A DNA stretch of 64,000 nucleotides, from positions 256,001-320,000 of the forward strand of contig CAVQNG010000004.1 in the NCBI GenBank assembly GCA_963713825.1, read 5' to 3'. Below, in pieces: positions 7,024 to 32,044 of this stretch. The first letter of the stretch is position 1, and every line of letters starts with the position of its first letter. The notes below the pieces were generated by a model that ran no database searches, had not been told where the DNA came from, and saw nothing but the letters and a program-made list of their open reading frames with translations. This DNA comes from an uncultured Acidobacteriota bacterium (lineage in GTDB: Bacteria; Acidobacteriota; Thermoanaerobaculia; Multivoradales; JAHEKO01). Made by a program: the position numbers and the translations under genes.

Positions 7024-7077
7024 GCGGACGAGCACGACTCAACCGATTCCGCATCTTGGAGACCCGGCACCTACGGC

Positions 7078-7851: not shown

Positions 7852-7864
7852 GAAATCTATCCTT

Positions 7865-8352: not shown

Positions 8353-10659
8353 ATGGTGACCAACAGCTCTGAGCTCGCCGCTCCCAAGAACGCTGGCCTC
8401 GACAGGGAGCTTCCAGCTGCCGATCCCCCGACGTCGCACAGACGACTCAGCCTGCTGTTGCCGTATTTGGCACTCGTCTTCCTCCACCTGCTCTCTGGCC
8501 TGCAGATGGAGCAGCCGCTCATCTTGGCCGACGAGCTCGGCTATCTCGGGAATGCTCGCTACCTTGCCGGGGCATCTCACCTGCCTGATATGCGGCACAG
8601 CCAGTTCTACCATTTCGGATATTCGCTGATCCTGATACCCGCCTTCTGGCTGTTCACCGATCCGGTCGCGATCTACAAGGCAGCGATGGTCATCAACGCG
8701 CTGCTGATGAGCGCACTCTTCTTCCCGGTGTACTCGATCCTGAGCTCGTTCCTCGAGGTCCCCAAAAGGACCGCGATCTGGATCAGTTTCGCTTGCAGTC
8801 TCTATCCGGCTGCGATGCTGTATTCGAACTTCGCCTGGGCGGAGAACGCTTTCATCCCGTTCTATGCCCTGACTGTGGCACTGATTGGGAGGTACCTTCG
8901 CTCCGGGTCCTGGCCCGATGTGACCATTTTCAGCTGCTGTGCCGCGTTCCTATACACCATTCATCCCAGAGGACTACCCGTCGTCGTCATCGTCGTCGTC
9001 TATCTTCTCGTTCTAGCGACCCTGAAAGTCGTCTCGAAGCGACAGGCACTACTGAGCGTCACGACCATCGGGTTGATCTTCGCAGCGACCCGAGTCGTCA
9101 ACGAGCATCTCAAGGCGATTGGCTGGAGGGGTACAGGTGAGTTCTCACTGACCCGATTGGGTGGAAGGCTCGTCCCGGGCAGCGACCTCCTCGTGTTGGT
9201 GCAGAGGGCCTTGGGCCAGCTCCTCTACCTGTCCCAGGCTACGTATGGACTGTTCCTCGTGGGTCTCGTGGCGGCGATCGGCTATGTCCTCAAGAAGATG
9301 GTCTCCGGCTCTCCAAGGCAGGCCATGTCGGACCCCAGAACCGGAGTGGCGGTCTTCTTGTTGATCACTGCCCCTGGCATCTTCCTTGCCTCACTGACCG
9401 TCAAGCTCTACAGCGTTTTCGGACCGGATGGCATTCGAGGGGCCGGCTTCATTCCCGGACGGTACAACGAAGCGTTTGCCGTCCTGTTTGTCGCCTTCGC
9501 CTTGGCGGAGCTTTGTCGGACTCAAACCGAAACTTCAAGAGCCGTCAAGCGTGCGATTGGCGTGACAGCTACGATGCTGGGCTTGACTGTGCTGACTATG
9601 GTCCACGTCAATACCTTCCTACAGAAGCTGGGCTCGGATTTGCCGGCAGATACGACCAGAAGGACAATCCCCGCGGCCCTGGTAGACACGCTGGATGTGC
9701 CGGGAGTCTTCCCCGTCATCGACCTGATTGGAGAGCTGAACCTCTACCTTGTGTCACTCGTTGCGATTGCCTTGTACCTCGCCACAACGATCACGACGAG
9801 GTATTCGTTACGCGCCGGAGCCGTCCTGCTGATGCTTGTCTTCTCTCAGTTCTCTCTCTACAACTATCGCCATTTCCTGCGACCGATCAAAGAAGATGCC
9901 GAGCCGCGACTCACCTTCGTTTCGCAGTTGTCTGGACTCGACCCGATCCCGGCCCTGAGCTACGACGATGGGTACTTCGATGCTCAGACTTTTTATGGAC
10001 TTCAGCACCTGCTACAGCGAACCGTGTTCGATCGATTCCACAGTCGCCGCGGAGAGACACCCCGATCCGAAGCGGTCATCAGCGCCAACCAGTGGCCGCA
10101 GGCGCCGAGAATCGGAGCCGAGTACTTTCTCAAGATCAGCAGCGTGGACAACGCCTTGTGGATTCTTCCAGGCGAGCTCCAGTCTCGACTTCCGGTCATG
10201 GCCTACGATGGCATGACGTTGGGAGCGGAACCAGCGATTCGCGTTCGGGAGCTCGGATTCCATGATCTTGAATGGGTCGCAGGAGTCCCGGCTCGTTGGA
10301 CCAATGGAGCCGCGAGCTTGAGAGTGTCATTGGATCCCGAGAACCCACCGCAGAGGGTCGAGGTCGAGATTCTCGCCTCCGGCCGCAGGGCGGGAGCCGA
10401 TCTCCAGATACTCACGAATGGTGTCGAGCTGTGGCGTGCACGGATTCCGGCCAATGAGTGGTCGAAGACGCTCAGCCTGAAACAGGTACCCATGGGCAAT
10501 GCACTACTCATCGAGCTCAACAGTGACACTTCGACCCCCGCTGCGAGCCTCGAGGGCTCTGCAGATTCGCGCCGCCTCGGCGTCATGGTCAAGGCCATTC
10601 GGTTGCAGACATCCGTCAGCGCCGATGGGCCGAGGGCAGTGAACAACAAGTCTCAATAG
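8353..10659 (+). CDS. Polytopic membrane protein, probable GT-C-fold glycosyltransferase with C-terminal extracytoplasmic beta domain
   Basis: DELGY after TM1, YHFGYSL, WAEN, HPRG, many TM helices and a C-terminal ARWTNG…DSRRLGV domain. Start uncertain (8125/8317/8353). Confidence 0.6.
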   Translation: MVTNSSELAAPKNAGLDRELPAADPPTSHRRLSLLLPYLALVFLHLLSGLQMEQPLILADELGYLGNARYLAGASHLPDMRHSQFYHFGYSLILIPAFWLFTDPVAIYKAAMVINALLMSALFFPVYSILSSFLEVPKRTAIWISFACSLYPAAMLYSNFAWAENAFIPFYALTVALIGRYLRSGSWPDVTIFSCCAAFLYTIHPRGLPVVVIVVVYLLVLATLKVVSKRQALLSVTTIGLIFAATRVVNEHLKAIGWRGTGEFSLTRLGGRLVPGSDLLVLVQRALGQLLYLSQATYGLFLVGLVAAIGYVLKKMVSGSPRQAMSDPRTGVAVFLLITAPGIFLASLTVKLYSVFGPDGIRGAGFIPGRYNEAFAVLFVAFALAELCRTQTETSRAVKRAIGVTATMLGLTVLTMVHVNTFLQKLGSDLPADTTRRTIPAALVDTLDVPGVFPVIDLIGELNLYLVSLVAIALYLATTITTRYSLRAGAVLLMLVFSQFSLYNYRHFLRPIKEDAEPRLTFVSQLSGLDPIPALSYDDGYFDAQTFYGLQHLLQRTVFDRFHSRRGETPRSEAVISANQWPQAPRIGAEYFLKISSVDNALWILPGELQSRLPVMAYDGMTLGAEPAIRVRELGFHDLEWVAGVPARWTNGAASLRVSLDPENPPQRVEVEILASGRRAGADLQILTNGVELWRARIPANEWSKTLSLKQVPMGNALLIELNSDTSTPAASLEGSADSRRLGVMVKAIRLQTSVSADGPRAVNNKSQ

Positions 10660-10790
10660 CGCCAGATCCTGTGCCTCGAATCCGTACCATTCGGCTTCGT
10701 ATACCATGCGCTCTAGTAGATTCACCGACCGACGGGGTCTTTCAACGAGACGGTTTTCTTCACCCACCTCACGGCGAAACGCGCAGAAAG

Positions 10791-11546
10791 ATGCCGGCCC
10801 ACCGGATTCATTGCTCGTACCATAAGTGTCTGACGGTGTTGTACCGTCGCGTCATGGATGCGGTGATGAATCGGTGCCAACCCTGGGGCGCCGGCTATCG
10901 CCACTACAACAGCCATTTAGAGGACTTCTACCGCGGCTTTCGAAGGGACCGCGTCGCCTCGGTGAACAACCGGGCGCTCGATCTCGAGCGCCTTGGCGAC
11001 TTCCGGATCTCACGCTTCATCCGCGATCCGCGCGATCTCGTGGTTTCGGGCTACTTCTACCACAGGCGCGGGGCCGAAGCCTGGACAACGATCGAATCAC
11101 CAACTCCTGCCGACTGGTACTTCGCCAATGGTGTCATCCCCGAGGGCCTGCAGGCCGCGGGCAAATCCTTCGCGCAGTATTTGCAGTCGCTGCCGGAAGA
11201 GGAAGGGTTGTTGGCAGAATTGGAGTTTCGGGCCCTCCACTTCGAATCGATGGCCTGTTGGCCAACCGATCGCGCCGACATCGTCACCTATCGCTACGAA
11301 GAAATCCTAGGGCACGAGAGGGAGCTCTTCCAAGAGCTCTTCGAGTTCTACCAGCTGTCGCCTATCGAGCGCCGAATAGGCGGCTGGTTCGCCAACCGCT
11401 ACTCGATCGGGAGACGACGCACCGACCCTCACATTCGCAACCCGGCCTCCGGGCAATGGAGGAAACACTTCACGCCGAGGGTGAGGCAGGCCTTCGATTC
11501 CAGGTACGCGGCATTGGTCCGACAACTTGACTACCCGGCTTACTGA
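10791..11546 (+). CDS. Sulfotransferase-domain protein
   Basis: SYHKCLT (5'-PSB-like), IRDPRDLVVSGYFYH (3'-PB), YRYEE and HIRNPASGQWRKHFT. Confidence 0.8.
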   Translation: MPAHRIHCSYHKCLTVLYRRVMDAVMNRCQPWGAGYRHYNSHLEDFYRGFRRDRVASVNNRALDLERLGDFRISRFIRDPRDLVVSGYFYHRRGAEAWTTIESPTPADWYFANGVIPEGLQAAGKSFAQYLQSLPEEEGLLAELEFRALHFESMACWPTDRADIVTYRYEEILGHERELFQELFEFYQLSPIERRIGGWFANRYSIGRRRTDPHIRNPASGQWRKHFTPRVRQAFDSRYAALVRQLDYPAY

Positions 11547-11622
11547 GGACTGCAGCAACCCTGAAGATCATGCAGCACCAATGGTTGACCTGATGGCTAC
11601 CACAACACGGAATCGGCAAGGC

Positions 11623-13026
11623 ATGGCGGGTACCATTCTGATCGCAACGGCTGGTCGGAGCGGCATTCTCTACTCGAGCCTGGAGCTCGGGCGTCGCCTT
11701 GCCGCCGCCGACCACAAAGTCGTCTATGCCGGTCCGGACAACACTCGCCAGCTCGTCGACCATCATGGTCTCGGCTTCCTTGCACTGGAACCGAGCCGCT
11801 ATGACCGCTTCCTCGAAGCGGATACCGACGCCAGCGTCCGCCACCGGCTCGTGCACCTGCGCAGCCGCCGACAACGCGCCGCAGCGTCCACGGCCGTGAG
11901 CGGCTTCGTCGCGGCCGTGATGGCTCTGAATCCGCAGCTCGTGCTCCTCGACGGCGAGATGCACGAGCACATCATCGCGACGTCGGGTACAGGCGTACCG
12001 ATGGCCCTGCTCAACACCTTCGCCTCGATCTGGAAACAGCCGGGACTGCCACCTGCGCACCATCTGGTCCGTCCCGGCGTCGGATGGAAAGGATCCCGAG
12101 TCGGTATCTCGATGCTGTGGCTCGCGCTGCGGCTCCGAAAGTGGCGCACCGCCACCTCACAGACGGTTCGGCGGATCGGCTGCGACCGCCTGTCGATTCT
12201 GCGTCATCTGTCCCGCGAGGCTGGCTTCGATCTAAGCCGCGAAACCGACGACAGTCAGTGGCTGATCCCTTTCACCTACCGACGATTGCCAGTGCTGAGC
12301 TTGCACGCCCTGGAGTTCGAGTTTCCCCACCGTCCACCCGACCGGGTGCACTATGTCGGCCCAATGGTGCTCGAAGACCGCATCGACCGCCCGATGTCGA
12401 ACGAGGGCCGAGCCGAGCTCGACGATCTCTTGGCGAGGCGACGACGGGCCGAGGGTCGCCGAAAGATGATCTATGCCGGTTTCGGCTCGGTCTTTTCCAC
12501 CGATCTGGATCTCCTGAAACGCCTCGTTCAGGCCGTCGCGGATCGTCGCGATTGGGATCTGGTGATCACTCTCAGCGATCGGGTATCGCGCGGCGCGCTG
12601 GGCAAGCTGCCCGATACGGTTCTTGCGCTGCCCTGGGTTCCCCAGCTGCGAGTCTTGCGGGATGCCGACGTTTGTGTGACTCATGGCGGCATCAACACCA
12701 TCGACGAGTGCGTCTCTTTTGGAGTGCCGATGCTCGTCTACTGCGGCCACGAAACAGACATGGCGGGCAACACCGCCCGCGTCGTCCATCACGGCATCGG
12801 ACTCGCGGGTGATCGGAGACGAGACGACCCGGCGATGATCCGCCATCGGATCGAGCGCTTGCTGACCGAGCCGCACTTTGGCACCAGCCTGAGTCAGCTG
12901 CGTCGACGTTATGAGGCGTATGCCGAGAACCGAGTGGCGGAGCGGACCATCGAGTCCCTGCTTGGTCTCGAGACTGGAACCCCAGCCGCCATCCGCACCC
13001 AGACTCCAGGTGGTGCTCGCTCGTGA
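11623..13026 (+). CDS. Family 1 (UGT/MGT-like) glycosyltransferase
   Basis: IYAGFGS and WVPQLRVLRDADVCVTHGGINTIDECVSFGVPML (UDP-sugar-binding signature). Confidence 0.88.
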   Translation: MAGTILIATAGRSGILYSSLELGRRLAAADHKVVYAGPDNTRQLVDHHGLGFLALEPSRYDRFLEADTDASVRHRLVHLRSRRQRAAASTAVSGFVAAVMALNPQLVLLDGEMHEHIIATSGTGVPMALLNTFASIWKQPGLPPAHHLVRPGVGWKGSRVGISMLWLALRLRKWRTATSQTVRRIGCDRLSILRHLSREAGFDLSRETDDSQWLIPFTYRRLPVLSLHALEFEFPHRPPDRVHYVGPMVLEDRIDRPMSNEGRAELDDLLARRRRAEGRRKMIYAGFGSVFSTDLDLLKRLVQAVADRRDWDLVITLSDRVSRGALGKLPDTVLALPWVPQLRVLRDADVCVTHGGINTIDECVSFGVPMLVYCGHETDMAGNTARVVHHGIGLAGDRRRDDPAMIRHRIERLLTEPHFGTSLSQLRRRYEAYAENRVAERTIESLLGLETGTPAAIRTQTPGGARS

Positions 13027-14480
13027 GCGACACCGCACGAAGGGTGGCCGCGGGGGCCGGTTGGCTCTATGGCTACCGATGGATCGAGAGGCTGCTCGAC
13101 TTCGTCTCGATCGTGGTGCTGGCGCGCATCCTGGCACCCGAGGACTTCGGCCTCGTCGCCATTGCGGCCTCCTTCGTGGCCATCATCGAAGGGCTGAGCG
13201 CATTCGACGTCAACAAAGCACTGATCCGAACACGCGACGAGCATCGATCGCTCTACGACAGTGCGTGGACCCTGTCTGCGCTGAGGGGCTTCGCAACTGC
13301 GCTGATCATGCTGGCGATCGCACCCTTCGTGACCGATGCTCGAATCAGCGCAGTGCTCGCGGTGCTCGCCCTCAGCCCGCTGATGACCGGGCTCTCCAAC
13401 CCTCGGTTCGTCATGTTCGAACGCGACCTGGTCTATTCCAAGCTCGCCATTCTGACGCTCGGGGCCAAAGTCGTCTCCTTCACGGTCACCCTGGTGCTCG
13501 CGTTGCTCTACCACAGCTACTGGTCGCTCGTGATCGGTCTGCTCGTCGGCGGTCTGATCACCATGATTCTGAGCTATGTCCTGAAGCCCTATCGTCCGAC
13601 TGTCTCGTTCTCCCGGTTCTCCGACATCTTCGCCTTCAGCGGATGGCTGTCGCTGACCAGCATCGTGACCACGCTGTCGATGGAGACCGACAAGCTCATC
13701 GTCGGCCGTTTGCTCGGAGTCGCCGACGCCGGCCTCTACTTCATGACCCAAAGAGTCGGAGTCCTCCCCACTCGAGAGCTGATCAGCCCGCTGCAGCGCA
13801 TTCTGCTGCCCTCGTTCAGCGAGCTGACCCACGACAGGCAACGGCTTCGTCGGGTGGCCTGCGAGTCGATCAACATCCTGGGTAGCCTCAGCATCCCGGC
13901 CGGCTTCGGGTTTGCCCTCATCGCCGCCGACTTCGTGCCGCTCACCCTGGGTGATCAATGGACTTCGATCGTGCCACTGCTGACGATCCTCGTTCCCTAT
14001 CTCGGCCTTCGGGCGACGCTGTCGATGACCTTGCCGTGCGTCATGGCGCTCGGCAAGACAAAGCTGCTGTTCTGGGTCAGTCTCGCCTACGCCTTCGTCC
14101 ATCTCCCCGCATTCATCGGTGGAACGGCCTGGTTCGGTCTGACCGGTGCCATCGTGAGCATCGTGCTGGCCGGAGTGCTGTACTCGTACTTGAACGCCTG
14201 GATGTTGAATCGAACGCTCGATATCTCTCTCCGCGAGATCCTGTCTCGAATCAAGAGGCCACTCCTGGCATCGCTGCTGATGGTAGGTGCCGTCTTGCTG
14301 CTCGACTGGCTCTTACCCACCGAGAGCCCTTCCGAGAGTGGATCCTGGCTGGCGCTTTTGCTCAAGATCGTCGTCGGAGGCGTAGCCTACAGTTCCGCCC
14401 TGTACGGGATGTGGCGTCTCGATGATCGACCCGAGGGCATCGAAAGACGTCTCCTGCAGCTGTTGGATCGCACTGACTAG
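13023..14480 (+). CDS. Wzx/PST-family polysaccharide flippase
   Basis: VVLARILAPEDFGLVA, DKLIVGRLLG…GLYF and ~12-14 TM helices. Confidence 0.9.
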   Translation: MSDTARRVAAGAGWLYGYRWIERLLDFVSIVVLARILAPEDFGLVAIAASFVAIIEGLSAFDVNKALIRTRDEHRSLYDSAWTLSALRGFATALIMLAIAPFVTDARISAVLAVLALSPLMTGLSNPRFVMFERDLVYSKLAILTLGAKVVSFTVTLVLALLYHSYWSLVIGLLVGGLITMILSYVLKPYRPTVSFSRFSDIFAFSGWLSLTSIVTTLSMETDKLIVGRLLGVADAGLYFMTQRVGVLPTRELISPLQRILLPSFSELTHDRQRLRRVACESINILGSLSIPAGFGFALIAADFVPLTLGDQWTSIVPLLTILVPYLGLRATLSMTLPCVMALGKTKLLFWVSLAYAFVHLPAFIGGTAWFGLTGAIVSIVLAGVLYSYLNAWMLNRTLDISLREILSRIKRPLLASLLMVGAVLLLDWLLPTESPSESGSWLALLLKIVVGGVAYSSALYGMWRLDDRPEGIERRLLQLLDRTD

Positions 14481-15646
14481 CGCTCGGCAAGAGCGGCGAA
14501 GGCACTCTCGGTCCGAGCCGCAATCGACGGCCAGGTGTGCTGTTCAGCGATCCGACGGCCGCCCTGAGCGAGTCGCGCTCGCAGCTCGCCATCGCCGAGT
14601 ACTTCGCACAAGGCTCTGGCCAGCGCCGTCGGCGAGTCGGGGGGAATGAGCCGGGCGCTGTCACCATCTCGAAGGGTACCGGGTAGTGCTCCGACGGTGG
14701 TGGCCACGACAGGCACACCCAGCGACAACGCCAGGTAGAGGACCCCGGACTGGCTGATGTGCCGATAGGGCATCGCCAGCACGTCGGCGGCCGCAAAGTA
14801 GCGCGACACCTCGGTGAAAGGGATGTACTCGAAGCGGTGAATCGCCCCGATTCGCTGCGCCCAGGAAGACAGCTCGTGGCGCCGAGCCTGACTCAGCCGA
14901 CCGGCATCGCCGGCGACGACCAGCCGTGCTCTGGGACGTGCTTCGACCACGTCCGGCCAGGCTTCGAGCAGGATATCCAAGCCCTTGTACTCACGAATGT
15001 AGCCGAAGAACAGGACCACCTCGTGGTCTTCGTCGAGGCCGAGGCTCTGTCGGGCCGAATCGCGAGCCAAGGGTCCGCCGTCGGGATTGAAGAATCCATA
15101 CTCCCCATGGGGGATCACCACCACCCGTTCAGGTTCGAGGGAGATCTCCTCGAGCAGTCTTTGCCGGTCGAAGTCGGAGTGAGCGACGACCAGTCGGCTG
15201 AGTCGATGCACGCGCCGAAAGAGGGCGTCGCGGAAAGGACGACGCTCGTGCGGGGTGACCACATGCGCCGTGGTCACGACCGGGGCCCCCACCAGCCGCA
15301 GGAGTGCGACAAAGAGCAGTGCGCTGCTATTTGTGCTGTGGACGTGGATCACGTCCGGTCGCAGGCGGCGCGCAAACGCGGCAACCGAGATAACATCGAA
15401 GACCGCCTCGACGCTGGTGGCCAGCTCCAGACTGCGCTGCGGCATCGCCCTACGATGCCGATGGGTGAAGCGTGCAAGCGTCTTGACCAGACGTAGATTC
15501 GACGGCAAGCTCCGGTCTTCGAGCTCGTAGGCGGCTGCCGTCACCAGGGTGACCTCATGACCGCGCTCAGCCAGCGCGCAGGAGAGATTGAAGGTGTAGT
15601 GGGTCAGTCCGCCGCGGCCAAAAGTCTCGATCTCGAGTATCCGCAT
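14477..15646 (-). CDS. Family 4 glycosyltransferase
   Basis: VIPHG, LFFGYIREYKGLDILL and PYRHISQSGV…GVPVVATTVG. Start at ATG 15646 (MRILEIE). Confidence 0.92.
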   Translation of the reverse strand: MRILEIETFGRGGLTHYTFNLSCALAERGHEVTLVTAAAYELEDRSLPSNLRLVKTLARFTHRHRRAMPQRSLELATSVEAVFDVISVAAFARRLRPDVIHVHSTNSSALLFVALLRLVGAPVVTTAHVVTPHERRPFRDALFRRVHRLSRLVVAHSDFDRQRLLEEISLEPERVVVIPHGEYGFFNPDGGPLARDSARQSLGLDEDHEVVLFFGYIREYKGLDILLEAWPDVVEARPRARLVVAGDAGRLSQARRHELSSWAQRIGAIHRFEYIPFTEVSRYFAAADVLAMPYRHISQSGVLYLALSLGVPVVATTVGALPGTLRDGDSARLIPPDSPTALARALCEVLGDGELRARLAQGGRRIAEQHTWPSIAARTESAFAALAER

Positions 15647-15796
15647 CTGGCAACTCGCAGCGCTGTTGCGAACCGTGACCGCAGTTCTGCGCCACTCGGC
15701 TCTACCGCCGGATCGTACCATCGCCGCGGGAGGTGCCGAAAAGAGTCGCGCTCGATAGACTGGAACCGATTCTCGACCAGATCGCAGATCCGTCCC

Positions 15797-19846: not shown

Positions 19847-19847
19847 C

Positions 19848-21591: not shown

Positions 21592-21607
21592 TACCCTTAC
21601 GGTGTCC

Positions 21608-22375
21608 ATGAGCGATCGTCCGAGTGTCTCCGTCGTCGTCCCGTTCTTCGCCAATGAGCTCACGTTGGCCGCCTGCATCGAATCGCTGCTGAACCAGGGC
21701 GCTGTCGAGGGCGGCTACGAGGTCATCCTGATCAACAATGGCTCAACGGACCGTTCCCCGTCGATAGCCGCTCACTACCCCGAGGTGACGGTGCTGGAGG
21801 AGGCAAACCTGGGCGCCTACGCTGCCCGCAACACTGGTATTCGCAAAGCCCGAGCTCCGGTGATCGCCTTCACCGACGCCGATTGTGTGGCCGCGGATGA
21901 CTGGCTGCAATCGATCCTCGACGGCTTTTTTGATCCGGCGATCGCGATCCTCCTGGGACACTTTCGCTATCCCGCCAGCTCGAACTGGACTCTGCGCCTC
22001 CTTGGCGCCTATGAGAACGCCAAGGCCGACTACGTGCTGCATCGCTGCGGGCCGGCCTATTACTTCGGCTATGCGAACAATATGGCGGTTCGGGCTTCAG
22101 TCTTCGCGGAGCTCGGACTCTTCAAGGAATGGCAACGGGCCGCCGACAGCGAGTTGGTTCATCGTTTGGCGGCCCGCCGCCCCGACCTGGAATTGGCCTA
22201 TCGGCCATCGATGAGGGTCACGCACCTGGAGTTTCTACACACTCGAGACCGCGTCCGACGAATGTCCATGTACACCAAGACCAATACACAGATCAGTACC
22301 TTCCGGGAGCTCGGACCCCGGCAACGCGCAGGTGTGTTGGTAAGGCTGATTCGAGGTTGGCGGGGCTATCACTAG
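21608..22375 (+). CDS. Family 2 glycosyltransferase
   Basis: VSVVVP, INNGSTD, GAYAARNTG and AFTDADC. Confidence 0.92.
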   Translation: MSDRPSVSVVVPFFANELTLAACIESLLNQGAVEGGYEVILINNGSTDRSPSIAAHYPEVTVLEEANLGAYAARNTGIRKARAPVIAFTDADCVAADDWLQSILDGFFDPAIAILLGHFRYPASSNWTLRLLGAYENAKADYVLHRCGPAYYFGYANNMAVRASVFAELGLFKEWQRAADSELVHRLAARRPDLELAYRPSMRVTHLEFLHTRDRVRRMSMYTKTNTQISTFRELGPRQRAGVLVRLIRGWRGYH

Positions 22376-22381
22376 CCGACC

Positions 22382-25300: not shown

Positions 25301-26617
25301 GATCGGCCGATCCGGATCCTCCAGCAGCGCCGCCAACAGAATCTCGAAGTGCTCGAGGCTGCGGCGACGCAGTCGCTCAGGCAGCGCCCTCTCGTTGTAG
25401 TCGAAATGCAGCGTGTAACCGCCAGTCCCCGAGAAATCGTGCACCTGGACTCGGAGGGCATGTACGCTGTCACCATGCCCCGGATGCACCCAGTCGACTT
25501 CGACCGGACAACCTGCGAAATCGCTGAACGCCGACGGAAAGTAGTTGAGTACCACGTTGCTCGCCGCGGCACTGGAGGGAGCGCTGCTCCCGGGTAAGGC
25601 GTGAACCAGGAATCGCCGGGCTTCCTCGAGACAGCGGGCTCCGAGTGAGAGGAACGTGTCGCCCGACTCGACTCGCGCCGCAAAGGGAAACAGTTCGATG
25701 AACAGACCCAGAGAGCGCTTGGCGTCCGGCGTCGGGCGACCGGCGATCGGGGCATCGAAACTCAGTTCCTGCCATCCGCTGATCCGGTGGAGCCAGCTCA
25801 CCAGGAGCGTGGCGAAAAGTGCGAATCGAGAAATCTCCGCCGACAGGCTCGAAAAACCGTCCTGCTCGCAGAGTCGATCGAGAGCCCTCGACCGCCCCTC
25901 GCCGAGCTCGAGGCTCAACCGTCGACTGACCGTGCCGACCGGGCGCCCGTCACGACCGTAGAAGGACACCGAACGCCCAGCACGTTCACTGCGGGCTGCC
26001 CAATGCTCTTCGGCCTCGGATCGGGTCTCCGCCGAACCGCGTTGCAGAGAGTCAGCGGTCGGATAGTAGTCGGCGAGACTGGCGCGCTCGGCTGGCACAT
26101 CACCACCGCTCCGCGACTGGTACTCGGCCCCGACCTCGCGAAACAAAAGCTGCGTCGACCAGGCGTCGGTGATGAGATGGTGTTGATTCAGGTACCACCC
26201 GGTGCGGCCCTTTCCCAGACGGACTAGGACGCTGTCGATAAGTGCGCCCTCGAGCGACAGTGCTTTGGCGCAGCGCTGGTGGCACCAACTCTTGAACTCG
26301 TCGAGCGGTTCGGACCGCGAGGTGAAGTCGAGCACCTCAGTGGGCGTCGTGTGCTCTGCGAGCTGGATTCGTACTCCTCCACCTTCCTGCTCGACCAACC
26401 GAGTCCGCAACGCGTCGCTGCGTTCCACGACGCGTCGCCAGGCTTCACAAAACAGCTCCGTCTCGAGCTCCGCAGGAAAAACGAACGCGAAGGCCATGTT
26501 GTACAGCGGACTGCCCGGATTGAGCCTTTGTCCAAGCCATATCTGTGTTTGGCTGTGGGTCAGCTCAATACTGGCGGCTCCGAGATCGCCCATTTCGCTG
26601 TTGGTGGTGGCTGTCAA
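22382..26617 (-). CDS. NRPS module C-A(interrupted by a PP-loop/AMDH-like domain)-T
   Basis: C domain HHLITD; A domain YTSGSTGKPKG, FDLT, NEYGPTE, YRTGD, A8 QLKVSGFRVEPGEIE. Then a ~330-aa insert with CxxC..CxxC and SGGKDS, followed by A9 LPPYLIP, A10 SGKVD and T domain FFELGGTSL. Start is TTG 26617 (AAGGAG RBS) or 26593/26683. Confidence 0.93.
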   Translation of the reverse strand: MTATTNSEMGDLGAASIELTHSQTQIWLGQRLNPGSPLYNMAFAFVFPAELETELFCEAWRRVVERSDALRTRLVEQEGGGVRIQLAEHTTPTEVLDFTSRSEPLDEFKSWCHQRCAKALSLEGALIDSVLVRLGKGRTGWYLNQHHLITDAWSTQLLFREVGAEYQSRSGGDVPAERASLADYYPTADSLQRGSAETRSEAEEHWAARSERAGRSVSFYGRDGRPVGTVSRRLSLELGEGRSRALDRLCEQDGFSSLSAEISRFALFATLLVSWLHRISGWQELSFDAPIAGRPTPDAKRSLGLFIELFPFAARVESGDTFLSLGARCLEEARRFLVHALPGSSAPSSAAASNVVLNYFPSAFSDFAGCPVEVDWVHPGHGDSVHALRVQVHDFSGTGGYTLHFDYNERALPERLRRRSLEHFEILLAALLEDPDRPIAEVDLLVAEERQVLATLNATDSQPLPERSVIEMFEAQAERHPGRVALRQGGVETTYAGLRDQMEELAAVLVAGGVEPGDRVAILSRRSSLAVVAILATLRARAAYVPIEARTPQARLDQIVADSGARLLLLGDLGGVEPQVSGADQLSIAEALGSGSGTPLDREVPGLDELAYLMYTSGSTGKPKGVLIEHGGLVDYLCWADRQYVRGERFTFPLVTSMAFDLTVTSLFLPLITGGCLEIYPEPDGPVDTALQDVVETNAVDFIKLTPSHLSLLESMGLEGSRVRRIVAGGENLRTELAARLVAGLQDRVELYNEYGPTEAVVGCVAHRYDSSSDRGLSVPIGVPADHVTVEVLNEALTAVPVGVPGELWISRYGLARGYHGPDEITQQRFQEHPAHPAQRRYRTGDQVRMLDDGKLEYLGRFDRQLKVSGFRVEPGEIETALLSIAGIDECAVVARRHPVVTLELDQQLRHCVRCGLPSNYPRAALDEAGVCSICRSYESIKEHAQAYFKSEEDLSRIFEESARQHDAPYDCLMLYSGGKDSTYALCRLVDMGLSVYAFSLDNGFISEGAKDNVRRVTQQLGVPVELATTRAMNAIFRDSLMRFSNVCNGCFKTIYTLSMKRARELGIPIIVTGLSRGQMFETRLVEDMFRDGLRSPDEVDAAVLAARKVYHRVRDEVTRALGTAVFEDDEVFRAVQFVDFFRYVDVGLDEMYAYLRQKVPWVRPEDTGRSTNCLINDVGIYVHRRERGFHNYALPYSWDVRLGHKTRAAALAELDDDIDVNDVKTMLREIGYDVERLSTHSDQVALEAFVVCAEDISVDTISSQLGERLPPYLIPTHLQRVDTIPLTASGKVDEEALRSEVYQRPREKPFRELEGPVEEFLGQAWQQELEVDTVGADDDFFELGGTSLAAMQVMLQLCREFDIDLPLESLFSHTTLGRLARIAEEKILADVAELTEDDGGRIAEGVEPPA

Positions 26618-26624
26618 CGGCGAT

Positions 26625-26930
26625 TCACTCCTTGAGGCCGGCTGGGGTGCTCTGCTCAGCAGACTCGACGCTGCCACGGACATAGTCAGCGAGCACTGCG
26701 ACGCTCTGGAAGTTCTCGACGACGAAGCCCGAAGACTGCAGGTCGACCTGGAACTCCTTCTCGACGAAGGCCGCCAGACGCAGCGCGCCGATCGAGTCGA
26801 GCACTTCCCCCGTCAAGAGGTCGTCATCGCGCTCGATCGTCGTTTCCGGGGCCAGCAACTCGCGCCGCAGGAACTCGAGTATCCTGACCTCGATGTCTCC
26901 AATCGACAGCCCAGCTTCGCTCTCAGTCAT
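26625..26930 (-). CDS. Stand-alone acyl/peptidyl carrier protein
   Basis: DLLTGEVLDSIG (Ppant Ser) and ENFQSV; acidic, ~100 aa. Confidence 0.9.
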   Translation of the reverse strand: MTESEAGLSIGDIEVRILEFLRRELLAPETTIERDDDLLTGEVLDSIGALRLAAFVEKEFQVDLQSSGFVVENFQSVAVLADYVRGSVESAEQSTPAGLKE

Positions 26931-28515
26931 CCTGTTGCCCTTCCTTCTGCGCCAATCGCTGTCGCAGGGCATTGCGGTCAATCTTGCCGGTCGGCGTCCG
27001 CGGCATGGCCTCGACGACCGTGATGTCCTCCGGCAAGCTGTGTTGAGGCAGAACGCTCTTCAATCGAGAGAGGACGTCACGGCGTCCGGGCCACCCGCGG
27101 TCCGCGACCACCACCACCGACTGAAGAGCCCAGCTTCCCTCTCCGTCCGGGACGGTGAAAGCAGCGGCCTCCTCGACCGGATCGAGTGTCAGCAGCGCCA
27201 TCTCGATCTCCTCGAGCTCCACACGGTGTCCCCGAATCTTGACCTGGCGATCGGCCCGTGTGACAAACGTCAGATTGCCATCTGCGCGCACCCGGACCCT
27301 GTCCCCGGTGCGGAAGTAGATCTCTTCGAGGTCGCCACCGACCGGCCGCCGAATCAGGACTTCGCGGCTGCGCTGCGGTTCGCCCCAATAGCCCGACATG
27401 ACCGTCGAACCGCGGACAAGCAACTCCCCCACCTCGCCATCGGGTACCGAACGAAGCTCGCTATCGACAACCGCGGTGCTCGAAGTCCAGCACGCCTTAC
27501 CGATGGGAACCGGGTTCTCGAACGACTCCCCCTCGGGCAGATGGTAGTAGGTACAGACATTGACCTCGGTCGAACCGTAGACGTGACTGAAACGAGCCTC
27601 CGGCAGCTGTCTTTTGATCCGGCGTAGGTGCTTGTTGGGAAAAATCTCACCGGCGAAAAGGACCCATCGCAGGCAGGACAAGTCTCTCGCCTCGAGATCG
27701 CCGCGCACCGACAGCTGAACGAGGGCGGTGGGCACCGAGTACCACACCGAGACTCGCTCCTTTTCGAGCCCGGCCGAGAGGCTGCCGGGCATCATCAGCA
27801 TGGCCGGCGTCAAGATCACGGTGGTAGCGCCGGCACGGGCAGCGGCGTAGTAGTCGAAGGTGGCGAAGCAGGTGTGATGCGACGAGTGGTTGCTAAGGCG
27901 ATCGTCACCGTTCAATGAATACTCATCGACAGCCCAGTCGACGAAGCTCATCGCGCTCCGATGCGTGTGGAGAATCAGCTTCGGGGTGCCAGTCGTGCCC
28001 GAGGTATGAAGGATGTAGGACGGATCCATGTCGATGACCTCGACGCCGGGTGGCCGGTCGGTGGCCGCCTCGGAGACGTCCGACCATGGATGGCATCGTC
28101 GAGGCCTGTCGGTCTCGGCCGCCTCCAACCCCACTACATGTTCCACCCATGGACAGCGCTCGAGTACATTGACCACGAGCTGTTGCTTGCCCGGTTCCGT
28201 GACGAGATACCTGGCTCCGGTAGCCCGCAAGATCCGAGCGACCCTCTCGACTGGAGATCGGGGATCAATCGGCACCAGGACTCCGCCCGCCGCGAGCACC
28301 CCGTAAAAGCCCACGGGCACCTTCAGTCCTTTACTGAGCAGGACCGCGACGCGGTTCCGGCGCTGCAGTCCGGCCTCCAATAGGACTCCTGCAAGGCCGT
28401 TCGAGTGCCGGGCCAGCTGCTCGTAGCTCAAGGCCTCGCCATCACAGCGGACGGCGCAAGCGTCGGGATGACGCAGTGCGGCCTCGTCGATCATGCGGTG
28501 GACCAGCATTACCAT
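26923..28515 (-). CDS. Stand-alone adenylation enzyme, PltF/RedM (prolyl-AMP ligase)-like but with an atypical pocket
   Basis: HTSGTTGTPK, WYSVP, LFAGE, YGSTEVNVCT, YFRTGD, QVKIRGHRVEL and TGKIDR. Confidence 0.88.
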   Translation of the reverse strand: MVMLVHRMIDEAALRHPDACAVRCDGEALSYEQLARHSNGLAGVLLEAGLQRRNRVAVLLSKGLKVPVGFYGVLAAGGVLVPIDPRSPVERVARILRATGARYLVTEPGKQQLVVNVLERCPWVEHVVGLEAAETDRPRRCHPWSDVSEAATDRPPGVEVIDMDPSYILHTSGTTGTPKLILHTHRSAMSFVDWAVDEYSLNGDDRLSNHSSHHTCFATFDYYAAARAGATTVILTPAMLMMPGSLSAGLEKERVSVWYSVPTALVQLSVRGDLEARDLSCLRWVLFAGEIFPNKHLRRIKRQLPEARFSHVYGSTEVNVCTYYHLPEGESFENPVPIGKACWTSSTAVVDSELRSVPDGEVGELLVRGSTVMSGYWGEPQRSREVLIRRPVGGDLEEIYFRTGDRVRVRADGNLTFVTRADRQVKIRGHRVELEEIEMALLTLDPVEEAAAFTVPDGEGSWALQSVVVVADRGWPGRRDVLSRLKSVLPQHSLPEDITVVEAMPRTPTGKIDRNALRQRLAQKEGQQDD

Positions 28516-28648: not shown

Positions 28649-29923
28649 TCATGGACTCACCGTTCGGAGCAGCGATTTCACCCGCTTGGTCAAATGGAAG
28701 TCGAGGCCGAAAGCCCGTTCGACCATCCAAACACAAGACACCAGAATCATCACGATGGCGGCCACCGGCAAGACCAGATTGCGGTAGATGGCCACCCTCC
28801 GTATCAGAAACAGCGCCGGGAACAACACTGCCACGATGAAGAGGACACCAACTCCGATTCCCAGATCGAACGCGAAGAGAGACAGGCCGAAGTTCTCGCC
28901 GAGGACGCCGAGACCCGAGATCGCAGCAGCGAAACCGAAACCATGAAACCAGCCGCAGACCAAGACGACGATCCACTTCCGACTTCGAAACAGTGGGATC
29001 AGGATGTTGGCCGCTGCCAGTGCCACCGTCAAGGCAATGGCCACCTCGACCAGACGCTCCGGCAGACGGAGCGCTCCCAGCGCAGCGAGGGCCAGCGTCA
29101 GGCTGTAACCGACGATGTAGGCGACAACCAGCTTGGCGAGATCGAGAAACGCCGGCTTGAACTCATCCACCGGCTGCCATGCTCCGTCGGTCCCGCGGAC
29201 CAGCACTGCCGGCAACAGCAATGCGATCAGGAACAGAGCGTGGTCGAAGCCGAACAGCATGTGCTCGAGCCCCAGGACCAGAACCGCGATGAATCCACGC
29301 AGTCGACCCGAGGAAGTCAAATCGAGCTGCTGACGTCGACCGCCAGAGCTGAAGACCAACGCAATCTGGTTCTCGTTCGCGAACGTCCCTGTTGCCCAGT
29401 TGTGCTCGATCAGCAGGTAGCCGCGGTGGTCGGGATCCTCATCCAAGAGGACCGAATAGTCGACGGTCAGAACGTCGGGAACGTCGTCGAAGCCACTGAG
29501 GTCGAAGGAGAGCAGGGCAAAACCATCGTGGGCCTGGAGATACTCGTGGGTGGTGAATTCGATGGCCAGAGGTCCCTGCTCTGAGGACAGCTTCACGTGT
29601 TCGAGGTAGTAGTCGTGCAGAAAGCCGATTCTCGCGTCGAGGTTGTCCTCCGTGATCTCGCCCTCAGTACCCGAAAACCCGAGCGCCGGATTCAGGTCCG
29701 AGAGCGCTATCTCGAAGCGTCCGCCCAGGCTTTCCGGGTAGACCTGGAGATAGAGGTAGCTCTCGCCCGTGTTGTGAGCACCCATCGGACCCGTCGAAAA
29801 GGCGATCAACGCGATGCAGAGCATCCACCGCAAGGCCTTACCGACCGGTGTCGAAGCGGTTGGAGCTATGCGGCGTTCTGCTGCCGTCGGCTTGGTTCTG
29901 TAAAACAGTTCGAGTCCGCTCAT
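28649..29923 (-). CDS. HupE/UreJ-family membrane protein with N-terminal extracytoplasmic domain
   Basis: Signal ending in …MGA-H, LGLEHMLFGFDHALF, YSLTL, VEVAIA and GWFHGFGFA. True start may be downstream. Confidence 0.85.
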   Translation of the reverse strand: MSGLELFYRTKPTAAERRIAPTASTPVGKALRWMLCIALIAFSTGPMGAHNTGESYLYLQVYPESLGGRFEIALSDLNPALGFSGTEGEITEDNLDARIGFLHDYYLEHVKLSSEQGPLAIEFTTHEYLQAHDGFALLSFDLSGFDDVPDVLTVDYSVLLDEDPDHRGYLLIEHNWATGTFANENQIALVFSSGGRRQQLDLTSSGRLRGFIAVLVLGLEHMLFGFDHALFLIALLLPAVLVRGTDGAWQPVDEFKPAFLDLAKLVVAYIVGYSLTLALAALGALRLPERLVEVAIALTVALAAANILIPLFRSRKWIVVLVCGWFHGFGFAAAISGLGVLGENFGLSLFAFDLGIGVGVLFIVAVLFPALFLIRRVAIYRNLVLPVAAIVMILVSCVWMVERAFGLDFHLTKRVKSLLRTVSP

Positions 29924-31065
29924 CCGAGCCCCCTGAGTCCAGCAATCAGATTTCGTTGGATCTCGGAAGTACCGACGTAGAGTGTCGTGGCGAGGGCGTC
30001 ACGCAGCTCTCGCTCCAGTTCGTAGTCGACCATGTATCCGTAGCCTCCGAAGATCTGCACCGCACTGCGACAGATCGCCACGTACGCCTCGCTAGTGGCG
30101 AGTTTGGCGAGGGCCGACTCCCGGGCCGCAATACCGTGAGCCGACCGATGCCAGGCGGCCCGGTACAGCAAGAGACGAGCCGACTCCAGCTGTAGCTCCA
30201 TATCGGCGATGCAGTGGGCAATCGACTGATGGCTGCCGATCGGAACCGAGCCTGCAGTTCGCTGGCGAGCATGATCGACACAGCGCTCCAAGATCCGCTG
30301 CATCACCCCGACAGCCGGAGCCATCACCAGTATCCGCTCCACATCCATCGTATGGTTGAAGATCATCATCCCGGAACCGATCTGCCCCACGACTGCCGAG
30401 CCCGAAACGCGAGAATTCTCCAGAAAGAGTTGTGACATCGGACTGGTTCGCAGTCCCATCTTCTCGATCGGTTCTCCCACCGTCAGCCCTGCGGTGTCCC
30501 TGGGGATCAGGAAGCAGCTGAGACCAGCCAAACCGCTGCCTCCCGTCCGAGCGTAGATGATGAAGAGATCCGCTACCGGAGCGTTGGTGACAAACGTTTT
30601 CGATCCGTTCAGGATCCAGTCTCCATTCTCCTCGACCGCCGTGGTCTCGAGCGCGAATGCGTCCGAACCCGAGTTCGGTTCCGTGATTCCGGTGGCACCG
30701 ATCGCAGTGCCCGATGCCAACCGTGGCAGCCACTCGTCCTTTTGCGCGTCACTTCCGAACGCACAGAGCGGGCCGGCACACGACGCGGCATGCGCGGTGA
30801 CCGAGAAGACCAGTCCGTTGTCCAGAGCCCCATACCCGGCGCCCTCGAGCACAGCGACAGCGGTCAGCAGATCGTGCCCCGTGCCCTGCCATTGCTCGGG
30901 GATCATGATGCCCTGCAAGCCGAACTCGGCGCACGCATCCCACAGCTCTCGAGAGAACCGGCCGGCGCGATCGCGCTCGATCACTGCGTCGACCAGGCGA
31001 CTCGAGGCAAACTCCACGGCGCCGCGGTTTAGCCTCGTTTGGTCATCGGTCCAGTCGAACTCCAC
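29920..31065 (-). CDS. Acyl-CoA dehydrogenase family protein, PltE/RedW (prolyl-PCP dehydrogenase)-like
   Basis: GYGALDNGLVFS, ITEPNSGSDA, LNGSKTFVTNAP, KMGLRTSP, QIFGGYGY and GTSEIQR. GGAGG RBS before GTG. Confidence 0.88.
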   Translation of the reverse strand: MEFDWTDDQTRLNRGAVEFASSRLVDAVIERDRAGRFSRELWDACAEFGLQGIMIPEQWQGTGHDLLTAVAVLEGAGYGALDNGLVFSVTAHAASCAGPLCAFGSDAQKDEWLPRLASGTAIGATGITEPNSGSDAFALETTAVEENGDWILNGSKTFVTNAPVADLFIIYARTGGSGLAGLSCFLIPRDTAGLTVGEPIEKMGLRTSPMSQLFLENSRVSGSAVVGQIGSGMMIFNHTMDVERILVMAPAVGVMQRILERCVDHARQRTAGSVPIGSHQSIAHCIADMELQLESARLLLYRAAWHRSAHGIAARESALAKLATSEAYVAICRSAVQIFGGYGYMVDYELERELRDALATTLYVGTSEIQRNLIAGLRGLG

Positions 31066-31237
31066 TTGTCCTCCGATCCGAGATTCGGCCTGTGCTCAGA
31101 CTCTCTGTGCCGGGCCCTTCTGCGTTTCGCCCCTACCGCCGTGCGCCAGGCGCGCTCGATTCCTGCGCAGCCCTGACGCTGTGGGCCCGAATCGAATTAG
31201 GATTATGACACCACTCGTGCGGCATGGCGGGGGTGGC

Positions 31238-32044
31238 TCAAGGCGGCTTCAATGGCCCTTCGAGGCCTACCGTTCTCGGGGTCCAGTCCCGCAGGCTGAT
31301 GGTCGCATCCGGCTGAGTCACGGCCAAAGCCGCTGCGAAGCCCGGGGCGACTCTCAAGCGGTGCACGAAGCCCTTCGTCTCTGAGTCGCGGGGGTCCACC
31401 CCTACGACCTCGGCGTGGGTGTCATCGGAAACGAGACGGATCTCGAAGCGGCTGAGCGGCACGGACAGACCTCCACCTCGAGCCTTGACCCAGGCTTCTT
31501 TGCACGTCCAGTAGTCGAAGAACAGTAGGGATCGGACCTCGGGTAGCGCCGCGGCGATCGCGGCGGCCTCGGCTGGCGTGAAGTACCTCGAGGCAATCTC
31601 GGTGTGGTCCATGTCGTCTCGGATCTTCTCCAGATCGATACCCAATTCCCGGCGCACGGCGACTGCGAGCAGAGCCATCCCATGGGAATGACTCGTATTG
31701 AAGCCGAGGTCCTCCCATGCCCTCTTGCCGACCAACCGAGGCTTGTCCTGAGGACCGTAATCGAAGCGAAGATTCCGCGGATTCTCCTGCAGGTAGAGGG
31801 CGAGCACGGTGCGGAGCTGTCCCCGACGCACGATGAAGTGCCGACGAAGCTCCTGGAACGAGAATCGCGACGCCCTGTGCAGCTCGTCTTCACTCAACAG
31901 CGACCTCAGGGAATGCACGACCCCATCGGACACGCTCAGAGAGGCGCGCCAGACGTGCACCTGGGTGTCGGTCAGATCAGGGCTGGAGGATTCGCTCAAA
32001 CTGACCCGAACCTGACAGCGAGGCTTGCTGGAACCCGGACTCAA
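31238..32044 (-). CDS. Sfp-type 4'-phosphopantetheinyl transferase
   Basis: VHVW, LSEDELHRA, KP, FNTSHS, LGIDLE and WTCKEAWVKARGGGL. True start probably near 32000. Confidence 0.92.
   Translation of the reverse strand: MSPGSSKPRCQVRVSLSESSSPDLTDTQVHVWRASLSVSDGVVHSLRSLLSEDELHRASRFSFQELRRHFIVRRGQLRTVLALYLQENPRNLRFDYGPQDKPRLVGKRAWEDLGFNTSHSHGMALLAVAVRRELGIDLEKIRDDMDHTEIASRYFTPAEAAAIAAALPEVRSLLFFDYWTCKEAWVKARGGGLSVPLSRFEIRLVSDDTHAEVVGVDPRDSETKGFVHRLRVAPGFAAALAVTQPDATISLRDWTPRTVGLEGPLKPP

Follow-up and report, generated by a model that had tools for sequence, protein, structure and literature searches.

A nonribosomal peptide cluster with an AMDH domain, interleaved with sulfation, glycosylation and flippase genes, in an uncultured sediment bacterium

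The window, i.e. the whole 64,000-nucleotide stretch of DNA that was analysed, stems from an uncultured sediment bacterium and contains a block of 15 genes at positions 8353-32044. All of them are real and intact according to the open reading frame list and a Pfam/NCBIfam profile search, and the gene set proposed in a preliminary description was confirmed, every ORF and its family included. The features are as follows:

8353..10659, +, GT-C-fold polytopic glycosyltransferase (ArnT/GT39-like; Atlas, fold), open frame from 8125
10791..11546, +, sulfotransferase 1, small-molecule type (PF00685), in 18/30 relatives
11581..13026, +, GT1 glycosyltransferase (PF06722), in 25/30 relatives and 9/51 other loci
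13023..14480, +, Wzx/PST-type MOP flippase, WzxC-like (PF13440), in 23/30 relatives
14477..15646, -, GT4 glycosyltransferase, in 23/30 relatives
15797..19846, +, NRPS module 2, C-A(His)-T-TE (profiles and motifs)
19848..20702, +, class I SAM methyltransferase, in 20/30 relatives
20680..21591, +, sulfotransferase 2 (PF13469), in 20/30 relatives
21608..22375, +, soluble GT2 glycosyltransferase, in 27/30 relatives
22382..26617, -, NRPS module 1, C-A(Asn)-T, interrupted A domain, open frame from 26683
22898..23911, -, AMDH insert of module 1, about 340 aa, between A8 and A9 (TIGR03573 match)
26625..26930, -, stand-alone carrier protein, LDS serine, in 29/30 relatives
26923..28515, -, stand-alone PltF-like A enzyme, Cys for Asp235, code CFFYLAVVC(K)
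28649..29923, -, HupE/UreJ-2 membrane protein (PF13795, HupE_UreJ_2), in 28/30 relatives and 31/51 other loci
29920..31065, -, AnaB/PltE-like acyl-carrier dehydrogenase (PigA/RedW-like ACAD)
31238..32044, -, Sfp/HetI-type phosphopantetheinyl transferase, accessory, linked in 4/30 relatives

The abutting and overlapping gene ends that had been described were also found: ten of the 14 junctions are 34 bp or shorter, and five are overlaps. The genes lie in four alternating strand blocks (+, -, +, -), with the GT4 gene and the His NRPS gene divergently oriented, and are not one operon. A promoter and terminator scan of the locus performed no better than chance. The G+C content of each gene (0.59-0.65) is that of the contig, and neither a G+C anomaly nor tRNA genes were found in the window, nor did a repeat search of it reveal island ends or att-like repeats. 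Contigs of four other DNA runs, one of which may be the source sample, span all 30 bins with zero indels. The stretches Wzx-GT4-NRPS (12906-16965) and GT2-NRPS (21588-23083) are also crossed by single contigs, so that misassembly of the junctions is ruled out. Pseudogene decay is ruled out by the intact motifs.

The proposed assembly order of starter, modified Asn, His and TE was supported by the A-domain codes, DLTKVGEVG(K) for Asn in module 1 and DSALIAEVW(K) for His in module 2; published codes tie the former to Asn/cyanoalanine and the latter to His. Among the parsed loci, each intact module 1 carries the Asn code, while the His code is present in 38 of 42 module-2 loci, with near-variants in the remaining four. 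Module 2 retains HHxxxD, the T serine, the TE motif GYSFG and the terminal His, and its gene abuts those for the methyltransferase, sulfotransferase 2 and GT2 on a common strand. No MbtH match was found in the window's own genome, which is 96% complete. The insert in module 1 (aa ~920-1267), listed in the preliminary description simply as an insert, turned out to be the known AMDH domain of CysH/AlbIV, which rules out a new domain. It lies inside the Asn-specific A domain and contains an SGGKD PP-loop and Cys pairs; the loop and other conserved core regions match AMDH when compared by eye with the text of Supplementary Fig. 10. According to the accessible parts of Gross et al. 2021 (PMC7966384), the AMDH of CysH converts T-bound Asn to cyanoalanine or isoasparagine, and no AMDH homologue could be tied to a known metabolite.

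The A enzyme, the carrier protein and a PltE/AnaB-type ACAD with the catalytic Glu form a clustered triad, which had suggested a pyrrolyl-2-carboxyl starter. This assignment was not borne out: Asp235 is missing from the A enzyme, and two aromatic residues of the ACAD pocket have been replaced. Judging from these substitutions, a plain pyrrolyl starter is improbable. Cys replaces the amine-binding Asp235 in 26 of 26 loci of the clade; the code CFFYLAVVC (PltF, DLLYLALVC) was read in 25 rows and one frameshifted row, and the loop reads SHHTC where PltF-type enzymes have PLHFD. The rest of the pocket is bulky and PltF-like (F236, F239, Y278, L299, A301, V322). The ACAD, which scores below the curated cut-offs for PigA (357/500 bits) and RedW (349/650 bits), retains Glu243 and has exchanged Trp94 for Ala and Trp/Tyr242 for Val. 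We infer that these aromatics play a role in starter choice; a literature search yielded no passage on the role of the ACAD pocket tryptophans. Loci outside the clade often contain a lysine cyclodeaminase, which points to a pipecolate starter there; none was found in the window's own genome, where the best match with the query used was 26%.

The GT-C identity of the 8353 protein, proposed earlier, was confirmed by its predicted fold. Atlas assigned it to PMT_2/GT39 (0.99), while Pfam and NCBIfam yielded zero matches, and a sequence-profile search of the PDB gave no GT-C match, just a spurious channel match. The model reached a pLDDT of 94 (39 when modelled from the single sequence), and its fold matched ArnT (E 5e-7, TM 0.51), ALG12, EmbA and AglB/PglB/STT3 at the top; the best 30 matches listed were all GT-C enzymes or complexes containing one. 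In the DE motif of the first outer loop, the Asp is invariant and the adjacent Glu is conserved to at least 90% (85 rows). The orthologue adjoins the block in seven of 30 relatives, and two of 301 genomes of the class contain it at high score. Other polytopic membrane proteins occupy the block ends in 12 more, i.e. 19 of 30 relatives have such a protein. These proteins are of five kinds without mutual homology, and some of them match PMT_2 or putative-GT profiles. The closest solved relatives of the GT1 are Kcn28, OleD and CalG, and by sequence it looks like a natural-product or small-molecule type enzyme. It is dedicated to this NRPS family: the ten positive genomes of the 301 are all nine AMDH-positive ones and one with a 4.8-kb contig bearing HupE-GT1. 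The nine distant loci with a GT1 all lack a GT2, GT4 or Wzx orthologue. The Wzx protein matches PF13440 (E 1.5e-67, 228 bits against a cut-off of 23) and stays below the WzxC equivalog cut-off (187 of 273). Among the 15 genes, the profile searches detected no initiating phosphoglycosyl transferase and no Wzy/Wzz; nine PF02397 (phosphoglycosyl-transferase) matches and an APS kinase for PAPS are encoded elsewhere in the genome or in the genome as a whole, respectively. The block encodes no hydroxylase, no obvious hydroxyl acceptor for the GT1 and no exporter other than Wzx.

The HupE/UreJ-2 protein, with its conserved HxxxGxDH, VExxIA and FHGxG motifs, is a candidate Ni/Co/Cu permease. A HupE-like gene occurs in 59 of 81 loci/genomes, with the His/Asp/Glu motifs invariant. 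A TonB receptor of one family was found in 10 of 51 distant loci, within the operon in L056, L057 and L087, and nearby in five of 30 relatives; the window genome's own receptor of that family is not linked to the block. Beside L013 (L091) and L018, the receptor is preceded by a His-rich leader ending near RAPP/RPPP, which resembles the copper-sensing CruR leader. The combination of NRPS core, HupE-like permease and TonB receptor suggests a metal chelator pathway, and the peptide is probably metal-binding. An upstream scan with Fur/Zur consensus boxes, which may not be those of Acidobacteriota, gave six weak matches and had no control; metal-regulator boxes gave scattered matches of 12/15 to 17/23 alone, and the aligned promoters contained no conserved operator.

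AMDH is carried by 409 stretches in species-representative genomes. The nearest 80 of these follow one blueprint and come mostly from sediment and marine bacteria of at least nine phyla. The NRPS core (starter, modified Asn and His, with the HupE-like permease and often a TonB receptor) likewise spans at least nine phyla, usually without the Wzx/GT2/GT4/sulfotransferase set and often with lysine cyclodeaminase and TonB receptor. The glycan-NRPS linkage put forward in the preliminary description stood, while the core had been overlooked as a very widespread family. Synteny of the block extends to about 25 other genomes, its gene order being conserved at 45-80% identity. The 30 carriers of glycan orthologues form one clade (SH-aLRT 99), and 51 of 80 loci have no glycan orthologues within 10 kb. 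A Wzx orthologue was present in seven of 301 class genomes, all AMDH-positive, and in none of 292 class genomes without the NRPS. Where the block is split (L030/L102, L034/L110, L018/L093), module 2 remains with the glycan half. A UDP-galactopyranose-mutase-like flavoprotein is linked in 18 of 30 relatives and a second, membrane-tailed GT2 in 17 of 30; the window block lacks both, and their paralogues lie on another contig with its own flippase. Two further genomes (G029, G322) contain NRPS-GT1-epimerase-UDP-glucose dehydrogenase-Wzx-GT2 on a single strand, with a Wzx just 23-25% identical to that of the window; by sequence, the Wzx of this second lineage is unrelated and was acquired in a separate event, and it is paired there with an Asp235 A enzyme. 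At L075, the locus continues into GT11, GT1, Wza, Wzc and Wzy_C.

Our preferred reading, plausible but somewhat short of probable, is that the block makes a sulfated, glycosylated acyl-Asn*-His metal chelator (Asn*, modified Asn) that acts in or near the cell envelope. The A enzyme would load the carrier protein with a small cyclic acid, which need not be proline, for desaturation by the ACAD. Module 1 would add Asn, which AMDH would turn into cyanoalanine or isoasparagine, as shown for CysH; judging from the codes and intact motifs, module 2 would add His and the TE would release the chain. The GT1 may attach the first sugar to the peptide, for elongation by GT4 and GT2. Decoration of the glycosylated peptide would fall to the methyltransferase and both sulfotransferases, and the Wzx-type protein would carry the product across the inner membrane. 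In the weakest step, the GT-C enzyme may add another lipid-borne sugar or tether the glycopeptide. The Cu/Ni-binding X-X-His motif is a four-nitrogen site, and here a ring nitrogen, two amide nitrogens and the imidazole nitrogen could form a similar one, the metal being imported by the HupE-like protein. Wzx and GT-C proteins normally act on lipid-linked sugars, and therefore a peptide at the reducing end fits poorly.

Alternatively, the peptide may cap a lipid-linked oligosaccharide as an acyl group, giving a surface-displayed chelator. The glycan would be assembled on undecaprenol by a membrane GT2 and the other GTs, a sugar of it would receive the peptide from the TE (or, in other lineages, from an A-less C-T-TE module), and Wzx would flip the product for ligation by the GT-C enzyme to a surface protein or lipid. 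The true GT-C fold, the recurrent polytopic proteins at block ends, the usual company of mutase-like flavoprotein and second GT2, the independent Wzx recruitment, the Wza-Wzc-Wzy_C continuation at L075 and Wzx as sole exporter argue for it, and one of the nine phosphoglycosyl transferases could start the chain. However, the block itself lacks an initiating transferase and the linked mutase and second GT2, the window's GT-C orthologue is present in few relatives and class genomes, and the small-molecule-like GT1 occurs without Wzx in cyanobacterial loci. We regard this alternative as possible, if on the unlikely side. The fully specified version, a Cu/Ni-binding acyl-cyanoalanyl (or isoasparaginyl)-His with a starter from the Cys235 A enzyme, on a sulfated oligosaccharide, flipped by Wzx, ligated to the surface by GT-C and arisen at least twice, is unlikely as a whole.

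Still less probable are two pathways sharing an island, an NRPS-GT1 metallophore and a merely co-travelling sulfated surface-glycan cassette (GT2, GT4, sulfotransferases, methyltransferase, Wzx, GT-C). The many loci without glycan orthologues fit such a separation, the single clade of carriers means that the co-occurrence may be one event, and the patchy phylum distribution suggests block transfer. Against this, the genes are interleaved, with module 2 heading the methyltransferase-sulfotransferase 2-GT2 run and GT1 heading Wzx, their order is preserved, a split of the block leaves module 2 on the glycan side, the Wzx orthologue was absent from all 292 class genomes without the NRPS, and the NRPS-Wzx link arose by convergence in another lineage. 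A fatty or branched acid loaded by the Cys235 enzyme, with a triad like MbtM/L/N and a glycopeptidolipid like the mycobacterial ones, anchored by its acyl chain and flipped by Wzx, would account for the need of a flippase, and the loss of Asp235, the reduced ACAD aromatics and the lack of a precursor enzyme at the locus agree with it. We consider it very improbable, as the remaining A pocket is bulky and PltF-like, PltF and AnaB rather than FAAL or MbtN come out as the best matches, and the G029 lineage pairs Wzx with an Asp235 enzyme.

The locus presents an AMDH-NRPS blueprint that has been joined to machinery for glycan export more than once, and its Cys235 A enzyme departs naturally from the A-domain code, in which Asp235 is nearly universal. 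If the product is a Cu/Ni chelator that is glycosylated or bound to the surface, it would represent new metal-acquisition chemistry and also a new route of cell-envelope modification; a surface-displayed metallophore would unite assembly-line peptide synthesis and lipid-linked glycosylation in a way not described before. A literature search, largely without subscription journals, found no characterised cluster matching the whole set.

Parts of the locus have known counterparts. The triad resembles PltF/L/E, RedM/O/W, PigI/G/A, Bmp4/1/3 and AnaC/D/B; the best solved relatives are PltF (6O6E) for the A enzyme and AnaB (4IRN) for the ACAD, which retains the residue aligned with the Glu of AnaB's WER motif. 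It differs from these pyrrole triads in Asp235 to Cys and in W94A and W/Y242V of the ACAD, and relatives outside the clade have a lysine cyclodeaminase. Chalkophomycin binds copper. There, too, a proline-type triad feeds an NRPS, yielding an N-hydroxypyrrole via two ACADs, plus a diazeniumdiolate; AMDH, a His module and glycan genes are not mentioned in the accessible text (bioRxiv 10.1101/2024.01.24.577118). As in CysH (cystobactamid) and AlbIV (albicidin), an Asn-specific A domain is interrupted by AMDH, an insert of about 38 kDa (~340 aa), and the 25 closest homologues given in that paper include entries whose organism names resemble those of L049 and L064; in that system, A-AMDH-T stands alone and is shuttled by CysB into an aminobenzoate line (PMC7966384). 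Here, in contrast, AMDH belongs to a module with its own C domain, which acts between the carrier-bound starter and the His module, and there is no CysJ-like hydroxylase. The C. difficile type B flagellin peptidylamido-glycan likewise has a sulfonated peptide on a surface glycan; in the accessible text, the term NRPS has 0 occurrences, and the glycan is built by GTs with carbamoyl-phosphate-synthetase-like and cyclodeaminase-like enzymes (PMC5207246).

With its NRPS and a GT1 matching Kcn28 in the PDB, the locus also resembles that of kitacinnamycin. Aeruginosins, bleomycin and mycobacterial glycopeptidolipids are glycosylated nonribosomal peptides that combine NRPS and GT1 with sulfotransferases or methyltransferases, and the metal site of bleomycin consists of an Asn-derived ring and a glycosylated His. 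To our knowledge, these four pathways neither pair a Wzx flippase with a GT-C enzyme nor include an AMDH module. Three-component lipid-linked glycosylation combines a GT2, a flippase and a GT-C enzyme, e.g. ArnC/ArnEF/ArnT. The locus shares with it the computed GT-C fold, the DE motif and the flippase, and most relatives also the membrane-tailed GT2 and a mutase-like gene; it differs in that the GT2/mutase pair is no longer linked to the block in the window, and in that these components are embedded in an NRPS cluster.

All 15 genes of the preliminary description were present at 8353..32044 of the window, and ORF calls and family searches confirmed that they carry the families assigned to them. 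They are arranged in four blocks on alternating strands, and 10 of the 14 gene junctions measure 34 bp or less.

Blocks of the cluster, with strand
Block a, +: GT-C, sulfotransferase ST1, GT1, Wzx
Block b, -: GT4
Block c, +: NRPS2, methyltransferase (MT), sulfotransferase ST2, GT2
Block d, -: NRPS1, carrier, stand-alone A enzyme, HupE-like membrane protein, AnaB/PltE-like dehydrogenase (ACAD), PPTase

The composition of the cluster is that of the contig. Positions 8000-27900 were covered without indels by contigs of four other DNA runs, and the NRPS-glycan junctions were likewise spanned. Among the best 80 of 409 matches to the AMDH insert of NRPS1, the nearest were mostly from Thermoanaerobaculia or Acidobacteriota, and a gene neighboring the cluster matches an acidobacterial VWFA model. 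Further features were noted around the cluster.

Features of the window outside the cluster
4204-5268 (-): weak likeness, below the cut-off, to archaeal type II glyceraldehyde-3-phosphate dehydrogenase
7078-7906: secreted-looking protein without annotation, not seen beside the cluster in relatives; 21-bp tandem duplication in this gene region at 7865-7906
32648-33280 (-): 210-aa Lys/Ala-rich repetitive histone-like protein, immediately outside the cluster
33546-36368 (-): class II B12-dependent ribonucleotide reductase
59397-63997: multiheme cytochrome c, GT2-methyltransferase fusion and unannotated membrane protein truncated where the window ends; these may form a further lipid-linked glycosylation unit

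The proposed linkage of the glycan genes to the NRPS genes was borne out in other genomes, both by a gene-content table (n = 30 genomes) and by a reverse test (n = 301).

Gene content in 30 genomes (loci extended; some contigs short, the block's second half on a separate contig in three genomes)
GT2: 27/30
GT1: 25/30
GT4: 23/30
Wzx: 23/30
TE: 23/30
ST2: 20/30
MT: 20/30
ST1: 18/30
Window-type GT-C: 7/30

In the same genomes, a flavoprotein closest to UDP-galactopyranose mutase was found in 18/30, a second GT2 in 17/30, and a polytopic membrane protein of some kind at a block end in 19/30. The window's own genome contains, separate from the block, a trio of GT2, Wzx-type flippase and mutase-like flavoprotein (L118:6189-10832, contig C25), which is paralogous to the GT2/mutase-like pair adjoining the block in relatives. 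Of all the genes in the block, the GT-C gene (block a, +) was conserved least often. It had no match in Pfam or NCBIfam, and the Atlas groups it with PMT_2/GT39 clusters. The protein contains a DE motif with an invariant Asp (alignment of 85 rows), and its confident model retrieved ArnT as the top fold match, followed by other GT-C enzymes. ST1, ST2 and MT are optional decorations, because they were jointly absent from five loci of freshwater or soil type (L020-L022, L038, L041). Sulfotransferases unrelated to those of the block were present in or near distant clusters (L077:17048-17893, L087:4350-5207, L053:18808-19449), which suggests that sulfation was recruited more than once.

In the DNA covered for 51 other loci, orthologues of GT2, GT4, Wzx, MT and the STs were found in none, and GT1 in nine. 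Of the 301 class genomes, nine contained the AMDH; the Wzx orthologue occurred in seven, every one AMDH-positive, and GT1 in ten, namely the nine AMDH-positive genomes and G316, where it adjoins HupE on a contig of 4.8 kb. As the carriers are kin and not independent, these counts mean tight inheritance rather than many events. Independent events of NRPS-glycan linkage nevertheless exist: in G029 and G322, a more distant cluster of the Asp235 type is followed by GT1, epimerase, UDP-glucose dehydrogenase, a Wzx with just 23-25% identity to that of the window, and GT2; and the L075 cluster continues into GT11, GT1, Wza, Wzc and Wzy_C.

The search with the AMDH insert yielded 409 confirmed stretches in species-representative genomes, and the best 80, with flanks of up to 10 kb each, were studied. 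These 80 carry labels of Acidobacteriota, Verrucomicrobiota, Bacteroidota, Cyanobacteriota, Actinomycetota, Pseudomonadota, Planctomycetota, Gemmatimonadota, Chloroflexota, Nitrospirota and Myxococcota, several of them from bins and possibly mislabeled. Their common core comprises ACAD, A enzyme, carrier, Asn(AMDH) module, His module and the HupE-like gene. Linkage of the core to this putative permease and, in Bacteroidota, to a capsule operon was confirmed in the loci studied. The window and 29 loci formed one clade (quick tree, midpoint root, SH-aLRT 99), the placement of L011, L015, L025 and L028 being taken from gene content or A-domain codes rather than from starter-enzyme residue rows. 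Frameshifts within cluster genes were seen in L015, L018/L093, L020, L044 and L046, and may be sequencing errors or decay.

The preliminary description had likened the starter triad to those that make pyrrolyl-2-carboxyl. The relatives of the triad agree with this: the best solved relative of the ACAD was AnaB (E 5.6e-102), and that of the A core was PltF. However, the amine-binding Asp235 of PltF is replaced by Cys in the window enzyme and three further pocket positions differ, which argues against a pyrrolyl-2-carboxyl starter, although proline itself may be the substrate. The code CFFYLAVVC was invariant in 25 rows, and one frameshifted row starts identically. No cyclodeaminase was found in the 26 loci with Cys235, whereas one was present with 23 of the 35 Asp-bearing rows, three of the 35 being other kinds of A domain. 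This enzyme matched lysine cyclodeaminase best (1.9e-91 vs 1.7e-36 for the ornithine enzyme), so the starter of the wider family would most likely be pipecolate, and Gly at 301 is consistent with this. In the ACAD of the Cys235 clade, Trp94 is replaced by Ala and Trp/Tyr242 by Val, and Glu243 is retained. From these residues, we infer for this clade a small cyclic acid with a substituted nitrogen or without a basic alpha-amine; 5-oxoproline, N-methylated proline or an oxa- or carba-analogue would be examples. Beside Asp235-type clusters, a membrane protein of 550-600 aa without family match recurs (L029:16637-18343, L032, L040, L045, L049, L082).

The A-domain codes were DLTKVGEVG(K) for module 1 and DSALIAEVW(K) for module 2, with Lys517 of both taken from translations. 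In a signature-sequence survey (PMC12283262), DSALIAEVWK is listed among His domains, and DLTKIGEVGK also accepts Cya-3, which we read as cyanoalanine. The module 1 insert lies between motifs A8 and A9, matched the WbuX amidotransferase model below cut-off, and agrees by eye with the AMDH alignment of Gross et al. (PMC7966384). These authors report that CysH-bound Asn was dehydrated in vitro, that AMDH deletion abolished isoasparagine products, and that no AMDH homologue was tied to any known metabolite. The condensation, thiolation and thioesterase motifs of the window NRPSs are all intact. Elsewhere, module organization varied. In L045, L073, L080-L082 and L088, a His module without T domain is followed by a 260-aa gene (e.g. 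L088:15961-16764), and downstream of this gene lie T-E and a C-T-TE module without A domain; the product of the 260-aa gene lacks a Pfam or NCBIfam match, resembles guanidinoacetate methyltransferase by eye, and may methylate His. An A-less terminal C-T-TE module occurs in many Asp235-type clusters (L128:10627-13410, L130:9856-17343, L040, L067, L073, L081), and the Asp235-type cluster of L058 holds a pair of radical SAM genes (L058:741-1976 and 5279-7234), one of them for a B12-binding protein, that separate the carrier from module 1.

We consider it slightly less than an even bet that the product is a chelating glycoside in which the peptide is the aglycone. A ring-acyl-X-His compound would be a plausible four-nitrogen Cu/Ni ligand, and the HupE-like protein, a putative transporter, has near-invariant His/Asp/Glu motifs (53 rows), which we take to be similar to those of nickel permeases. 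One TonB-receptor family recurs; in several loci from Bacteroidota its gene is part of the operon, and in two cases it is preceded by a His-rich leader with a RAPP-like end. Short His-rich leaders with RAPP, RPPP or RGPP near the end were seen upstream of this family at L091:9100-11745, L107:3109-5951, the start of L018, and G000:C3:1875931-1878650 in the window's genome. They resemble CruR (PMC9426467) but lack its CXXC; perhaps they are CruR-like stalling leaders sensing Ni, Co or Zn. Against a metal chelator count the unlinked position of the window genome's own receptor of this family and the lack of a metal box in aligned promoters and in upstream regions scanned with Fur/Zur consensus boxes, which may not be those of Acidobacteriota.

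Kcn28 and OleD are the nearest relatives of GT1, which favors the peptide as aglycone, and the same likeness speaks against a peptide that caps a lipid-linked surface glycan. The latter is rather unlikely, although the Wzx and GT-C of the block favor a lipid-linked route; it is hard to combine the two routes in a single scheme. Mere co-location of NRPS and glycan genes as two pathways appears improbable, and a glycopeptidolipid even more so.

In the literature searched, with most subscription journals outside the search, no paper on the NRPS-glycan combination was found. All parts belong to known families, and the AMDH domain has already been described. New elements are the clade whose starter enzyme has Cys235, the conserved block of ST, GT, Wzx and GT-C genes, the exclusivity counts and a second recruitment of Wzx. 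The block is a real, conserved orphan cluster.
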